DNA from: a virus
Virus genome (UHGV): UHGV-0016284
Direction: 5' to 3' (one strand)
Length of the DNA stretch: 55,548 bases
Shown: piece after piece, positions 3,201-11,651 of the stretch
Numbering within the stretch: position 1 is the stretch's first letter
Layout: the number at the start of each line of letters is the position of its first letter
Notes under the pieces: model-generated
Told to the model about the DNA's origin: nothing
Seen by the model: the letters and a program-made list of their open reading frames with translations, nothing else
Databases searched by the model: none
Translations under genes and position numbers: made by a program

Positions 3201-5950
3201 GTATTGACAACGTTATCGCTGAAGAGAAAAAAGCAACGGCTGAATCACTGAAAACCATCACGGCAGAAATGAACACGATGGATTCCAACCTTAAAGGTCA
3301 GATCTCCAGTGTGGAACGCGCAGTGGCTGACGAGGCTAGTGCCCGCGCTGAAGCTATTAACGGTGTGAACGCCTCAATAAGCAATCTCGACAAGAAAACG
3401 GATGCCAGCGTCAATAGGCTTGATCAGGCTATTGCAGATGAAACGAACGCCCGCACACAGGCGGTCAGTGACGTTAACGCAAGTATCTCGGTACTTGATA
3501 AGAAAACTGACGCCAGCGTTAAACGCCTGGATCAGGCAATCGCTGACGAAACCAGCGCAAGAACCGAAGCTATCAGTGGCGTGAACGCATCAATTTCAAC
3601 GCTTGATAGCAAAGTGGAAAGCAATATAACGCGCATAGATAAAGCTATTGCAGATGAAACGCAGGCGCGTACAGACGCAATAAGCGGCGTCAAAGCGAGC
3701 ATTAACACACTTGAAGGCAACACCAATTCAGAAGTTAAACGTCTGGATCAGGCAATCGCTGACGAGGCCAGTGCCCGCACACAGGCGGTCAGTGATGTAA
3801 AAGCATCAGTAAGCAACCTTGAAAGCAAAACTGACGCCAGCGTTAAACGCCTGGATAAAGCTATTGCAGACGAAACAAGCGCACGCAGCGAAGCTATTAG
3901 TGGGGTAAATGCCTCAGTATCAGCGCTCGACAAGAAAACCGATTCAAGCATAAGCCGCCTTGATAAAGCCATTGCGGATGAAACAAGCGCGAGAACCGAA
4001 GCCATCAACGGTGTGAATGCGTCAATTTCCACACTCGACGGCAAGGTTACAAGTAACGTTAGCCGCCTTGATAAAGCGATTGCAGACGAAACTAAGGCAC
4101 GCACTGACGCCATCAGCAGCGTTAATGCAAGTATCAGTACGCTTGAAAGCAACACTGAATCAGAAGTAAGTAGACTCGACCAGGCAATCGCTGACGAGGC
4201 CAGTGCCCGCGCACAGGCCGTTAGCGGCGTGAAGGCATCAATAGACAGCCTTGATAAGAAAACAGATGCCAGCGTTTCCCGCCTTGACAAAGCAATATCA
4301 GACGAAACGAAGGCAAGAAGCGACGCAATAACAGAGGTTAAAGCAGACTTAACAACGCTTGAGAACAGCACAAACGCCAGCGTTAAGCGTCTTGATCAGG
4401 CAATTGCCGATGAATCAAGCGCCCGCGCTCAGGCAATATCAGGCCTCAGCGCAAATCTTGGCACTGTTGAAAATAATGTTGGCAAAAACAGCGACGAAAT
4501 AAATCAGGCAAAAGCAAGCCTGCAAAACGCATCTATTGCACTTATCAATAACTCAATCGCTCAAACCAACACGCGTGTTACTCTTTCAGCCCAATACAAG
4601 AAAGGAATCAGAGAAACCAACGCGAAAATTGACCGTATTGACAACGTTATCGCTGAAGAGAAAAAAGCAACGGCTGAAGCCATTAGCGGTGTAAACGCAT
4701 CGATCACTAATCTTGATAAGAAGACTGAAGCAAGCGTAAACCGTCTTGATCAGGCAATTGCTGACGAAACAAGCGCCAGAGGACAAGCTATCAGCGAAGT
4801 TAGCGCAAGTGTCAGCACGCTTGATAATAAAGTGACAAGCAACGTCACCAGGATGGACAAAGCCATCGCCGACGAAAAAAAAGCACGCGCGGACGCAATA
4901 AGCGGCCTTAGCGCATCGCTTACCAGTACGATCAACTCAAAAGTATCTGAAGTGTCGACGGCGCTCTCTACGCATGAGGAATCAAGCGCGGAAAAATTTA
5001 GCCAGATCTCAGCGTCTTTCGAATCAGTAAACTCAAGTATTACAGAATGGTCGCAGACAATGGCTACGGCAGACGAGGCGTTGTCAACGAAAATTGATCA
5101 GCTAACAGTGACCGTTAACGGGAACAAGACGGCAATAGAGACGACATCTAAAGCGTTAACCGACTTTAGGGGTAATGTTGATGCGACATATTCAATCAAG
5201 CTCGCCACAGATAGCAATGGCGTAAAATACGCTACAGGTATGTCGCTTGGCCTTACTGGTGACGGCACTAACTTTCAGTCGCAGTGTATTTTCCTTGTTG
5301 ATCGCTTTATGTTAATGACGGCGGCAAACGGCGCATATACATCGCCCTTCTATGTCACTAACGGCGCAATGTATGTGAAAGAGGCATTTATTAAGGATGC
5401 ATCAATAGGGACAGCTAAAATTGCAGATGCCTCCATTACTATGGCTAAAATTGTCAATGAAATTAAATCAGCAAACTTCGTCCCCGGTTCCAATGGTTGG
5501 AGGATAACACAAAGCGGCGCATCAGAATTTAACAACGTTGTTGTAAGGGGTGAAATACATGCAGACAGCGGCAAGTTTACCGGTTCACTTGAGGCGAAAA
5601 CCTTTATCGGTGATGTTGCAAACATGTACACAGGTTCTGACGTTAGCACGTTAAGGGATGGTGAACTAGAAAAAGTAATAACATACAATGACACATCTGA
5701 CGCAGCGCATAGCCGACATATCTGCGTTATGGCTAACGTTAAGGGTTTTGGTGGTTGCACAATAACAATTGGCGGTTCATCAAAAGGTTTAGCACTGGAT
5801 GGCACGGAGCGCCTTGTTATGCATTCAGCAGCAGTAACCAGCAGGGGCGTTACAGTTAAAATTAAGGTATCTGCTCAAAATGACAAGGGGGCTTATATAA
5901 ATTCGCCGACAGTCATAGTGTCGCGCGGTTCTGGTTCATTCTCAGGATAA
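206..5950 (+). CDS. J: host-specificity / central tail fibre protein, lambda J-like, with inserted coiled-coil repeat stalk
   Basis: N-terminal ~800 aa align by eye with lambda J (TPTLLNDNLYHKQFYRVLDILSEGPIYGPV; FDIRIRRITADSNSDLLQNDTRWSSYSEIID; YCDQLVDDGYGGLEPRMTLNAY; FGCTSRGQAHRAGKWLIET). C-terminal ~350 aa also J-like. Between them lies a ~650-aa Ala/Asp/Glu-rich repeat region absent from lambda J. Confidence 0.9.
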   Translation: MSSGGGKAKTPTLLNDNLYHKQFYRVLDILSEGPIYGPVNQKAPLNNVMLNDTPVTDANGNTSIPGISIAWRNGTADQSPINGFNAIESTVIVNAKVTHDTPIIRTVSDPNVTRVRLNLGVDALVQSDDKGNQYNTSVMLMVDVKPSLSSTWSLIKDIHIGPGKQSGEYLEAHIIKAPDEKPFDIRIRRITADSNSDLLQNDTRWSSYSEIIDDNLSYPHTAVAGAVIDHDQYTDTPTRTYHLRGLIVDVPDNYNTETRTYSGLWLGGFKKAYTNNPAWIFRYLVKNERFGLARHAGYIDVDDGALYVLSQYCDQLVDDGYGGLEPRMTLNAYITEQMSARDLLDNIAGMFRGIALWDGQRLTVMIDAPQDPIATITNASVVDGAFTRSSLPLAECYNAVIVSWTDPENGWEQSKEYVADDELIARDGYNETTLEAFGCTSRGQAHRAGKWLIETAKREPSKFTFKMARDAIHFTPGDIIEILDNNRAGARLGGRIVANNGRVITVDKVDSEYITPGDTISLLDSDGKFKKHQITGVSGNKITLASAPAWIRNGTVFAVSTNAAKPVLCRITSVAETENNSVYTIEAAQHDPHKQAVVDNGAIFEVNNDTLNHFRVPNIENLKVLNIGSETVQCRATWETLTTTHRLTFEIRVYNSAGAVVKSYETTNYSYDFYGIDAGTYSLGIRGRNDTGMKGAESIVDLVIGAPAAPVGVNWVPGVFQATVYPISRTTLTTDTSYEFYYSGETQITDPASVTTKAQYTGRGHQWTFGGMNTGHTYYVYVRTRNAFGVSDFVEASGKPTENFDEISDYVMKDVMGSEQFKEMIGDIKDLGDRTDVIEGVAEELKTATDNLKTTTDNLTNVTDDLRTETDNLTSITDDLRTETDNLTNITEDLRTDTDNLITETGTIKADTDTLKKETEDLYKKVKENADDIGQHESRIDLLEVSSEKVGSELAQAKASLQNASLALINNSLAQTNTRVTLTAQYKKGRTETKAEIDRIDNVIAEEKKATAESLKTITAEMNTMDSNLKGQISSVERAVADEASARAEAINGVNASISNLDKKTDASVNRLDQAIADETNARTQAVSDVNASISVLDKKTDASVKRLDQAIADETSARTEAISGVNASISTLDSKVESNITRIDKAIADETQARTDAISGVKASINTLEGNTNSEVKRLDQAIADEASARTQAVSDVKASVSNLESKTDASVKRLDKAIADETSARSEAISGVNASVSALDKKTDSSISRLDKAIADETSARTEAINGVNASISTLDGKVTSNVSRLDKAIADETKARTDAISSVNASISTLESNTESEVSRLDQAIADEASARAQAVSGVKASIDSLDKKTDASVSRLDKAISDETKARSDAITEVKADLTTLENSTNASVKRLDQAIADESSARAQAISGLSANLGTVENNVGKNSDEINQAKASLQNASIALINNSIAQTNTRVTLSAQYKKGIRETNAKIDRIDNVIAEEKKATAEAISGVNASITNLDKKTEASVNRLDQAIADETSARGQAISEVSASVSTLDNKVTSNVTRMDKAIADEKKARADAISGLSASLTSTINSKVSEVSTALSTHEESSAEKFSQISASFESVNSSITEWSQTMATADEALSTKIDQLTVTVNGNKTAIETTSKALTDFRGNVDATYSIKLATDSNGVKYATGMSLGLTGDGTNFQSQCIFLVDRFMLMTAANGAYTSPFYVTNGAMYVKEAFIKDASIGTAKIADASITMAKIVNEIKSANFVPGSNGWRITQSGASEFNNVVVRGEIHADSGKFTGSLEAKTFIGDVANMYTGSDVSTLRDGELEKVITYNDTSDAAHSRHICVMANVKGFGGCTITIGGSSKGLALDGTERLVMHSAAVTSRGVTVKIKVSAQNDKGAYINSPTVIVSRGSGSFSG
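2745..2960 (+). repeat. short in-frame tandem repeats (about 30-40 bp units) encoding TDNLxxTTDDLRTETDNLT motifs inside J
   Basis: Repeated peptide TDDLRTETDNLT(S/N)IT and matching DNA units (actgacgatttaaggactgaaacagacaacctta...). The antisense ORF 2632..2940 is a by-product of this periodicity. Confidence 0.6.
3194..3244 (+). repeat. 51-bp perfect direct repeat, copy 1 (within J)
   Basis: attgaccgtattgacaacgttatcgctgaagagaaaaaagcaacggctgaa is identical at 3194-3244 and 4628-4678. An additional 23-bp identity (gcaaaagcaagcctgcaaaacgc) lies about 125 bp upstream of each copy. Confidence 0.85.
3310..4450 (+). repeat. about ten tandem 108-bp (36-aa) coding repeats, predicted coiled-coil stalk of J
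   Basis: Protein repeat KKTDASV(K/N)RLDQAIADETSARTEAISGVNASIS(T/N)LD recurs about 10 times with a 36-residue period. Boundaries approximate. Confidence 0.8.
4628..4678 (+). repeat. 51-bp perfect direct repeat, copy 2 (within J)
   Basis: Identical to 3194-3244. Spacing 1434 bp = 478 codons, so recombination between copies would be in frame. Confidence 0.85.
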
Positions 5951-5952
5951 AC

Positions 5953-5984
5953 AAAAACCCCGCTTCGCGCGGGGTTTTCTTTTA
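5953..5984. terminator. bidirectional rho-independent terminator between J and the antisense lipoprotein gene
   Basis: Hairpin ccccgc-ttcgc-gcgggg followed by ttttctttt on the plus strand and preceded by an A-run (T-run on the minus strand). Confidence 0.7.
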
Positions 5985-6230
5985 GTAGTTAGCTACACAG
6001 TTAGAAGGGCTACCGATGCGGCGCATGTTGTGATCGAGTTCATGACACCATTGACCAGTATAAGGCAGTTTTTCAGTGTCATAGACAAGATGACCTTCAC
6101 CATCATAGACAACATCTTGTGGAATTACTCCGCTATTCGGCAGGTTATGCAATGCGGCCTCTTTGTCAACAGCGCAACCAGTAAGAGCTACAGCCGCAGC
6201 GAACAAAACCACTTTGAACATGTTTTTCAT
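5982..6230 (-). CDS. small lipoprotein (signal peptide plus lipobox LTGC), antisense moron next to J
   Basis: MKNMFKVVLFAAAVALTGC...: hydrophobic signal peptide with L-T-G-C lipobox; 82 aa with two further Cys; AGGA ribosome-binding site 8 nt upstream. Confidence 0.65.
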   Translation of the reverse strand: MKNMFKVVLFAAAVALTGCAVDKEAALHNLPNSGVIPQDVVYDGEGHLVYDTEKLPYTGQWCHELDHNMRRIGSPSNCVANY

Positions 6231-6339
6231 TTTTAATCCTCATTCTCGTTCGTTCATCCGGTTCATCCGGTGGCTTAAATATCAGACAAAAGCACATTTC
6301 GTATATTGATATAAATCAACAAATACATTTTGTGTAAGC

Positions 6340-6373
6340 AGAAAATGCAACACAGATCACAAAATGGTAGAAT
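6340..6373 (+). promoter_or_regulatory. candidate extended -10 promoter for the side tail fibre gene
   Basis: TGgTAGAAT at 6365-6373 (TGn plus near-consensus -10); AT-rich upstream; GGAG ribosome-binding site before the ATG at 6407. Confidence 0.3.
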
Positions 6374-6406
6374 TATTCCGTTAATTAACAAAATGGAGTC
6401 ATCGAG

Positions 6407-10197: not shown

Positions 10198-10451
10198 GTG
10201 TACCAAATCGTGACCAAATTGATAAATCAAAAACAAAAACAAATCATAAGATATTGAATGCAAACAGGTTTTTCGCTGAACTACCCATTCAAAAGATAAA
10301 CGGATAGTGCCATTTCTATAATTTCATATCGTGTCGCATCGTCACCGTTTCGCGTTGATTTAAAAAGAAATATTTATTCTATCGTGTCATATCGTTCCCT
10401 ATCGTGGTACTATCCATGCGTAAAATGTGTGTACCAAATAGTGACCAAATT
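10197..10451 (+). promoter_or_regulatory. putative attP / integrase regulatory region with 24-bp direct repeats and ATCGTG-type short repeats
   Basis: tgtgtaccaaatcgtgaccaaatt at 10197-10220 recurs (1 mismatch) at 10428-10451, directly abutting the int ATG; several tatcgtg/catcgtc repeats lie between; no tRNA-like sequence seen. Confidence 0.35.
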
Positions 10452-11651
10452 ATGCTTACAGATACCAAACTAAGAAACATCCACGGCAAGCCATACGACG
10501 GCCCGGAAGAAGTACCGGATGCGGGCGGATTGTCTGCCAGGATAAGCCCGCGCGGAGTTATATCTTTCCAGTATCGCTACCGATTCAACGGCAAGCCTCG
10601 ACGGATGAAGATCGGCACATACGGAGAAATAACACTTAAAGAAGCCCGCGCGGCGGTGGCTGAACATAAGGAAGTGTTAAACTCAGGACGAGATCCATCA
10701 ATCGTAAAAAGAATGCACTTTTCCCGCGTTACGACACGGGCAACGGTTGAGGATATTGTCAGGGAGTACATGGAATCACCACAGGCAAGAAACATGGTTA
10801 ACTATAAGCAGGTTGAAGCGATGTTGAATAAGCACGTCATCAGGCCATACGGTAGCTATATAGTCGATGATATGGACGCTATGATGTGGGAGGGTGTTTT
10901 TAGAAAGGTGGCTAATGGTGGTGCACCAGTTCAGGCGGGCATAGTTCTCAATAGAATGAAAGCGGTAATAAAATACGCCATGCGTCGCCGCCGCGTGGAT
11001 CGTGACGACATATCTTTACTACGCGTGAAAGACGTTGGTAAAAACCCGGCGCAAGGGAAGCGGGTTTTGTCAATACAGGAGATTCGCCATCTAATCAGCC
11101 TTATAGACAGTTCAAAAATGGCGCGTCTAAATCAGATATTGATGAAACTGATTATATTCACCGGATGCAGGACAAGCGAGCTAACAAACGCAAGGCGAGA
11201 ACATTTCGATCTTGATAACTGCGTGTGGACTGTGCCGGGTGCATTGAGTAAGAACAGAAACGAGTTTAAACGCGGTTTATCCGACGTTAGCGTCGATTTA
11301 TTGCGTGAGGCTATGGATCTGCATAGCTTTAATTTTGTCTTCGTTCCTGTGCTTTCTGGAAGGGATGAGGCGGTGGACAGAAGTGTACCGAAAACAGCGG
11401 CAAGGGATTTGATGTTAAGGATGGGCGGCGAGCCGTGGTCGTGTCACGATCTACGCCGCACTGTGAGAACGAACCTCTCTGCCATTGGCATTGCGCCTCA
11501 CGTTGCAGAAAAGGTTTTAGGTCATAAGCTGGCGGGGATGTTGGCTATATATGATCAGTATGACTACGTGAGGGAACAGACAGAGGCGATGAACATGCTT
11601 GCTGATTATTACATGAAGCCCATTGATTTACAAAATGAAATAACGTCCTGA
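10452..11651 (+). CDS. int: tyrosine integrase, P4-type
   Basis: N-terminus MLTDTKLRN...GLSARISPRGVISFQYRYRFNGKPRRMKIGTYGEITLKEARA is the characteristic P4-family start; C-terminal catalytic region with HDLRRT and LGH...Y-containing tail. The track start at 10404 is probably an upstream extension. Confidence 0.9.
   Translation: MLTDTKLRNIHGKPYDGPEEVPDAGGLSARISPRGVISFQYRYRFNGKPRRMKIGTYGEITLKEARAAVAEHKEVLNSGRDPSIVKRMHFSRVTTRATVEDIVREYMESPQARNMVNYKQVEAMLNKHVIRPYGSYIVDDMDAMMWEGVFRKVANGGAPVQAGIVLNRMKAVIKYAMRRRRVDRDDISLLRVKDVGKNPAQGKRVLSIQEIRHLISLIDSSKMARLNQILMKLIIFTGCRTSELTNARREHFDLDNCVWTVPGALSKNRNEFKRGLSDVSVDLLREAMDLHSFNFVFVPVLSGRDEAVDRSVPKTAARDLMLRMGGEPWSCHDLRRTVRTNLSAIGIAPHVAEKVLGHKLAGMLAIYDQYDYVREQTEAMNMLADYYMKPIDLQNEITS

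Follow-up and report, generated by a model that had tools for sequence, protein, structure and literature searches.

An antisense lipoprotein gene linked to the LamB-type tail tip of an mEpimmI-type coliphage and its probable role in superinfection exclusion

Between the tail tip gene J and the side tail fibre gene of the viral genome UHGV-0016284, a small lipoprotein gene is encoded on the opposite strand. This position raises the question whether the gene is real, whether its product excludes other phages from the cell, and on which receptor it would act. In the following, the window designates the whole stretch of DNA that was analysed (55,548 nucleotides).

By megablast, the window matches the Escherichia phages mEp010, mEp013, mEp044, mEp554, mEp515, mEp021 and MagusPhagus. 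Its open reading frames follow the order J, tail fibre, integrase, early genes, and head and tail genes up to the tape measure, and the window looks like a circular permutation of the complete genome of a temperate coliphage (siphophage) of the mEpimmI type with ~55.5 kb. A tyrosine integrase with an Arm DNA-binding domain is encoded at 10404-11651, ~340 nt downstream of the tail fibre gene. Neither Rfam families nor tRNA genes were detected across the whole window.

The lipoprotein gene and its surroundings

The features of the locus are collected in Table 1. An earlier note, made from the sequence alone, had placed the lipoprotein gene antisense between J and the side tail fibre gene with a shared bidirectional terminator. 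This placement was borne out, and the terminator was scored on both strands. The hairpin is common to J on the plus strand and to the lipoprotein gene on the minus strand, the stop codons of which are separated by 31 nt; the hairpin has been conserved in the mEp genomes, the annotation of which likewise lists a terminator. The antisense frame of 82 aa with a signal peptide and an LTGC lipobox was equally found as described. The range 5982-6406 assigned to it contains the coding sequence but also takes in the 176-nt intergenic region by which the gene is separated from the side tail fibre gene. The latter gene carries a Peptidase_S74 chaperone domain, which is typical of tail fibres.

Table 1. 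Position of the features of the J–lipoprotein–side tail fibre locus in the window
Feature	Position	Strand	Evidence or remark
Tail tip / host specificity protein J, 1914 aa	206..5950	+	Pfam GpJ domains and Phage_Tail_Tip
J receptor-binding region, last ~166 aa	5450-5947	+	Type found in LamB-dependent phages
Bidirectional intrinsic terminator	5953-5979	both	G+C-rich hairpin with A and T runs on either side; terminator scan
Lipoprotein CDS, orthologue of mEp010 gp116 (Lpp010, 'type-C' Lpp)	5982..6230	-	ATG start, 82 aa and stop; ORF list, tblastn
Mature lipoprotein, 64 aa (C19-Y82), predicted	5985..6176	-	Family alignments
Lipobox L16-T17-G18-C19	6174-6185	-	C19 codon at 6174-6176
Signal peptide, residues 1-18, predicted	6177..6230	-	Read from the sequence
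Shine-Dalgarno GAGGA	6237-6241	-	6 nt before the ATG; invariant in 6 mEpimmI genomes
Conserved intergenic region, lipoprotein gene to tail fibre gene	6231..6406	.	~94% mean column identity, 6 genomes
Side tail fibre gene, 1219 aa	6407..10066	+	C-terminal Pfam Peptidase_S74 (intramolecular chaperone); DNA similarity to side tail fibre genes

The product starts with MKNMFKVVLFAAAVALTGC, followed by AVDK..., and reads in full MKNMFKVVLFAAAVALTGC/AVDKEAALHNLPNSGVIPQDVVYDGEGHLVYDTEKLPYTGQWCHELDHNMRRIGSPSNCVANY. Reading by hand revealed the elements of a bacterial lipoprotein signal, i.e. a positive n-region (K2, K6), a hydrophobic h-region (VVLFAAAVA, with the uncharged stretch LFAAAV at residues 9-14) and a lipobox Cys within residues 15-35. 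The lipobox A15-L16-T17-G18-C19 fits [LVI][ASTVI][GAS]C, and the N-terminus matches the PROSITE pattern PS51257. Lipidation is predicted at C19. According to the +2 rule, an Ala after the lipid Cys predicts sorting to the outer membrane. Since residue +2 of the lipoprotein is Ala, not Asp, outer-membrane sorting is expected.

An alignment of 23 family members clearly showed the constraint on the mature part. C19 and 20 further alignment columns are invariant, and the lipid Cys is followed by A, S or G in all members, never by D. The conserved core reads PNSGV.P...DTEKLP.TGQWC.E..H..RRIGSPSNC...Y, in which PNSGV.P, TE, TGQW and the final S.NC...Y are, like the lipobox Cys, invariant, and the flanking residues D51, K54, L55, P56, I72, S74 and P75 are conserved in at least 90% of the members. 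C62 is nearly invariant and C78 invariant, and both may form a disulfide. AlphaFold2 gave a pLDDT of 56.9 for the full-length protein (23 sequences) and of 54.8 for the mature domain (20 sequences), values at which the models are unreliable, the alignment being shallow.

That the frame arose by chance or is an annotation artefact has a practically negligible probability. The ORF is small and antisense within a late operon, and RefSeq as well as several phage records call it "hypothetical protein" or miss it. Against this reading, the pairwise dN/dS amounts to 0.03-0.17 in a gap-free alignment of six mEpimmI-type genomes, and judged from these ratios the gene is under purifying selection. Together with the invariant lipobox Cys and core motifs of the 23 homologues, the conserved Shine-Dalgarno and terminator and the experimental phenotype of an orthologue, this refutes a chance ORF. 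Near-identical genes were found by tblastn in five sequenced phages.

The intergenic region is as conserved as coding sequence in six phages, and the promoter of the lipoprotein gene must lie within it (6231..6406). A consensus scan of this region gave no sigma-70 consensus promoter for the lipoprotein gene, and a relaxed scan delivered weak candidates only, e.g. TTGTTA-16-TACCAT at 6391-6364 (-). A tandem 9-mer, GTTCATCCG x2 on the plus strand, occupies positions 6252-6269 just upstream of the lipoprotein ribosome-binding site. Short minus-strand ORFs of 23-43 aa overlap or precede the lipoprotein gene (6166..6297, 6275..6391 and 6282..6353), and the mEp and MagusPhagus records annotate small 'hypothetical protein' genes in the corresponding slot, e.g. 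mEp010_117 (phanotate calls in the mEp records). In this conserved regulatory region, the short ORFs of the window probably arose as artefacts of gene calling.

Relatives of the lipoprotein and their association with the J tip

The closest relatives of the lipoprotein were identified by tblastn in mEp010 (97.6% identity), mEp013 (96.3%), mEp044 and mEp554 (both 95.1%) and MagusPhagus (93.9%), in all of which the gene occupies the same antisense slot after J. Compared with mEp010 gp116, named Lpp010, 80 of the 82 residues are identical, the differences being V4M, which lies in the signal peptide, and S45E, the single change in the mature part. The profile of PHROG 12984 matches the protein at E=8e-27, and all 23 aligned relatives fall in this PHROG, which is annotated merely as "lipoprotein". 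Going by homology, lipobox and antisense slot, the protein is a member of the Lpp010 family (PHROG 12984), a lipoprotein named type-C in the study on the mEpimmI phages (PMC11893012, 2025).

The C-terminal 52 residues match small lipoproteins at 68-77% (tblastn). Homologues are carried by the Seuratvirus phages CAjan, Seurat, KurtStettler, GottfriedDienst, WildeMaa, SeppeHuegi and the SLUR phages, by CSP1/CSP1C and by the Dhillonvirus phages EP23 and PNS1, while gp69 of the Nonagvirus 9g is a homologue with 50% identity. CAjan, EP23, KurtStettler, CSP1C and 9g again have the gene immediately behind J on the opposite strand. The records of Shigella phage EP23 (NC_016566; L003:5920-6159) and PNS1 leave the homologue, MKTLIKNLIIPAACLLMTACGSG...SPSNCVIDY, unannotated. 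Among 5.8 billion proteins the family comprises 25 clusters, all with 49-104 aa; the few named ones derive from Salmonella or enterobacterial phages. Of 5,426 complete E. coli genomes, about 10-13 contain the gene together with its intergenic region, in every case on the chromosome and under the annotation "hypothetical protein". Lipoproteins encoded after gpJ in virulent siphophages targeting LamB had already been flagged as putative superinfection exclusion factors (PMC9586334, PMC11990801).

Over the C-terminal 166 aa, the J protein of the window is similar to those of mEp013 (81.5% identity), mEp044 (74.5%) and mEp554 (72.6%), followed by CSP1C (65.5%), mEp010 (57.8%), 9g (57.1%), HK97 (54.8%) and KurtStettler (52%). 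A second tip type, found in CAjan, EP23, GottfriedDienst and MagusPhagus, shows 31-33% identity. HK97 depends on LamB. LamB is also the terminal receptor of all four carriers of the lipoprotein in the BASEL collection, Bas21-24 (BASEL S5 table), and a lamB knockout strain was not infected by mEp010, mEp013, mEp044 and mEp554 (PMC11893012). The lipoprotein accompanies both tip types, each of them found in LamB-dependent phages. The J C-terminus of the window groups with those of phages which depend on LamB by experiment, and the receptor of this phage is therefore likely to be LamB, not FhuA.

Four unrelated phage backbones combine the gene with a J C-terminus of the LamB type. The Nonagvirus FritzHoffmann (Bas20), listed as LptD-dependent (BASEL S5 table) and taken as a control, has a J of 925 aa without this C-terminal region and a 321-aa antisense gene in the slot; no homologue of the lipoprotein was found in it (tblastn E>2). 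Its relative 9g has both the J receptor-binding region and the lipoprotein. A strict co-occurrence of lipoprotein and J tip was rejected: the lipoprotein gene is missing from HK97 despite its related tip, and lambda lacks both. In MagusPhagus (L008:6501-11217), the 93.9% identical lipoprotein stands beside a J tip of the CAjan/EP23 type which is 33% identical to that of the window. Within one phage group, two divergent J tips thus go with a single lipoprotein allele.

Two observations bear on the way in which the gene travels. The DNA of CSP1C is 82.5% identical to the window at 5603-6083, a continuous stretch which covers the 3' end of J, the terminator and part of the lipoprotein gene. A mosaic lipoprotein was found in a prophage of another type, located next to tonB in E. 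coli EC23HZZ201 (L013:6034-6531), in the antisense slot behind a J-like gene of 1296 aa which bears the annotation 'DUF1983 domain-containing protein'. The mosaic resembles the lipoprotein of KurtStettler in its N-terminal half and agrees with that of the window in all of its last 26 residues; the RefSeq ORF has 165 aa from an upstream GTG, and the expected Met reads Ile (..PIKRSIVILT..). Because of the continuity in CSP1C and the mosaic in EC23HZZ201, J tip and lipoprotein gene can be said to behave as one exchangeable cassette. A match to the lipoprotein gene would flag a LamB-dependent phage, and receptor use could be predicted from sequence.

The J gene of the window also contains tandem coding repeats at 2770-2907 and 3494-4029, with periods of 42 nt (x3.3) and 108 nt (x5), which encode a long coiled-coil-like region (...RLDQAIADETSARTQAVS.VNASIS.LDKKTDASV...). 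J has 1914 aa in the window, 1707 in mEp010, 1504 in mEp013, 1828 in mEp044 and mEp554 and 1478 in MagusPhagus; from these lengths, the copy number of the repeats varies between close relatives. Repeats in this region of J have been mentioned before (PMC11893012).

Exclusion by the orthologue and proposed mechanism

The earlier note had proposed that the lipoprotein is a receptor-blocking exclusion factor. This idea gained support from the orthologue which differs by two residues: plasmid pLpp010, carrying the cloned gp116 of mEp010, excluded mEp010, mEp044, mEp554 and, unexpectedly, lambda in spot plating assays, while mEp013 was not excluded (PMC11893012). The exclusion function is thus already known for a near-identical protein, and since that protein was tested in the 2025 study the novelty here is low. 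For annotation, the gain is a name for the gene, LamB-directed superinfection exclusion lipoprotein (Lpp010 family).

The exclusion of lambda is informative for the target. Lambda was not among the best 60 of 719 matches to the J C-terminus, and no similarity of its J C-terminus to that of the window was visible with both C-terminal sequences side by side. That lambda is excluded despite its dissimilar J tip therefore suggests a target on the host side which these phages have in common; the only feature which lambda and the excluded mEp phages are known to share is LamB. Furthermore, mEp013 needs LamB and yet plates on cells producing Lpp010, so that LamB must be present and at least partly accessible. 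This would favour a local conformational or steric change over a loss of the porin.

The reading favoured here, to which we give a probability of about three in four, is that the outer-membrane lipoprotein makes LamB unusable for LamB-dependent siphophages, probably by binding to it, and that it belongs to an exchangeable module linked to the J tip. The lipoprotein would leave the cytoplasm through Sec, receive its lipid at C19 and reach the outer membrane by Lol sorting. Its 64-residue mature domain would there deprive LamB-dependent siphophages of the maltoporin LamB as terminal receptor, most likely by binding LamB and altering or occluding the surface recognised by J-type receptor-binding domains, an action which would parallel that of T5 Llp on FhuA and of Rtp45 on LptD. 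In a lysogen, host and prophage would be protected from lambda-like and mEpimmI-like competitors, and during lytic growth the loss of progeny to infected cells and debris would be avoided. The carriers of the genera Seuratvirus, Nonagvirus and Dhillonvirus are virulent, and the benefit must therefore arise during lytic growth, which is the sole mode open to them. The gene would move as one exchangeable module with the LamB-specific J C-terminus. Within this scheme, direct binding to LamB, a block at adsorption, a periplasmic topology and expression in the lysogen are inferred.

Other explanations were weighed against this one. From the receptor side, a surface-flipped lipoprotein could mask the loops of LamB on the outer face rather than act from the periplasm. 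Such masking has been raised for exclusion lipoproteins of receptors without allostery, LptD being the example alongside LamB, and LamB, which has neither a plug domain nor known allostery, offers no obvious route from a periplasmic binder to the outer face; LamB-targeting phages such as Bas23 were considered likely to have exclusion lipoproteins, the working of which on an allostery-free receptor is unclear (PMC9586334). The escape of mEp013 by means of its own receptor-recognising protein, probably J, would fit a partial steric masking. Nevertheless, masking from outside is unlikely: the protein sequence shows no surface-export signal, and the solved cases, Llp-FhuA and Rtp45-LptD, were not reported as such. 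Llp binds the periplasmic face of FhuA (PMC9586334), and for Rtp45, too, binding to the periplasmic side of its receptor, LptD, has been described (bioRxiv 10.64898/2026.04.02.716166).

The protein might also act after adsorption, hindering tail-tip penetration or the passage of DNA through the periplasm while the receptor is left untouched, in the manner of the Ltp lipoprotein of Streptococcus phage TP-J34, which acts against the tape measure protein. With plating assays only, the authors of the Lpp010 experiments left both possibilities open ('interfere with DNA ejection ... or block the host receptor'; PMC11893012). A block of this kind is nonetheless quite improbable, given that the gene tracks the LamB-type tip over four backbones with different tail and injection proteins, that it is replaced when the receptor changes, and that lambda and the excluded mEp phages have LamB in common. 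A moron improving host fitness and unrelated to exclusion, e.g. an adhesion or serum-resistance factor like Lom or Bor of lambda, would account for the usual layout with own terminator and opposite orientation, and the slot after J corresponds to lom in lambda. Such a function is very hard to reconcile with the exclusion phenotype of the orthologue, which largely refutes it, and with the homologues kept by strictly virulent Seuratvirus, Nonagvirus and Dhillonvirus phages, to which fitness traits of a lysogen are of no use; moreover, the protein resembles neither Lom nor Bor nor any Pfam family.

The proposed inactivation of LamB by the lipoprotein leaves the case of mEp013 to be considered. 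This phage carries essentially the same lipoprotein and escapes Lpp010, and over the last 260 aa its J is the closest to that of the window (83.8%), which also shares 22 of the 41 positions where mEp013 differs from all three excluded phages. Self-exclusion by the phage of the window is therefore uncertain, its J tip being closest to that of an escaper. Two related readings are tentatively put forward, as possible rather than probable: LamB would be disabled from the periplasmic side, and the module would exclude rivals such as lambda but spare its own kind. If the periplasmic part is true, a general or sugar porin would be inactivated as a receptor in a way that has not been described so far, and the cell might lose maltodextrin uptake. 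If the own kind is indeed spared, the locus would be a snapshot of an arms race between receptor-binding domain and exclusion factor inside a single cassette. The escape of mEp013 and the mEp013-like tip of the window offer a genetic handle on the relevant residues of J and features of LamB.

Comparison with known exclusion systems

The earlier note had compared the locus with Llp and Cor and suggested a similarity search against both. When this search was done, no family-level match was obtained. Pfam and PADLOC gave no match to the lipoprotein at E<=10, and NCBIfam delivered noise only, including a 19-residue signal-peptide match to LptM. Membership in the Cor family was rejected, as the Cor profile PHROG 1119 matches residues 4-22 only, i.e. 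the signal peptide, at E=0.1; one of 23 relatives matched this PHROG, weakly (E=0.0023). Membership in the Llp family was rejected for want of sequence similarity in a search of the family profile against 177,635 distinct PDB sequences, a set which should include the FhuA-Llp entry; it returned three chance-level matches (E>0.5), none of them Llp. The comparison with Llp and Cor thus holds for the way of working, while the sequence belongs to neither family and the receptor is probably LamB, not FhuA.

The nearest known system is Lpp010 itself, with the same antisense slot, terminator and phage group as the gene of the window. It is linked to a J of 1707 aa, versus 1914 aa here, and the J tip of the window is 70% identical to that of mEp010 over the last 260 aa but closer to that of mEp013. 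The homologues of virulent phages (Bas21-24, CAjan, Seurat, 9g gp69, EP23/PNS1) are 50-77% identical in the mature domain and keep all core motifs, both Cys and the antisense slot directly after J, but their signal peptides differ, and the linker that follows the lipid Cys is shorter (77 versus 82 aa).

T5 Llp is likewise a small outer-membrane lipoprotein which adjoins a receptor-binding function and inactivates the receptor of its own phage. Both proteins have two Cys in the mature part, which in Llp form a disulfide (PMC9586334). In contrast to LamB, which has no plug, the target of Llp is a TonB-dependent transporter with a plug that is exploited by Llp, and Llp adjoins a separate receptor-binding protein gene (pb5), whereas the receptor-binding region is here the C-terminus of J. 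Cor of phi80, N15, HK022 and T1 resembles the present case as a lipoprotein in the tail gene region which excludes phages sharing its receptor; it acts on FhuA-dependent phages, whereas the J tip of the window groups with LamB-dependent ones. Rtp45 of phage Rtp shares the locus downstream of gpJ in small siphophages and the receptor-specific cassette, but its receptor is LptDE, and the PDB-wide profile search gave no match to it. According to a recent study, Rtp45 blocks the binding of the receptor-binding protein to LptD via conformational changes arising from steric clashes (PMC12685063). Alongside these systems, the Lpp010 family would be the LamB counterpart of Llp (FhuA) and Rtp45 (LptD), and the disabling of a plugless porin by a small lipoprotein would be an instance of the mechanistic question raised for such receptors (PMC9586334).
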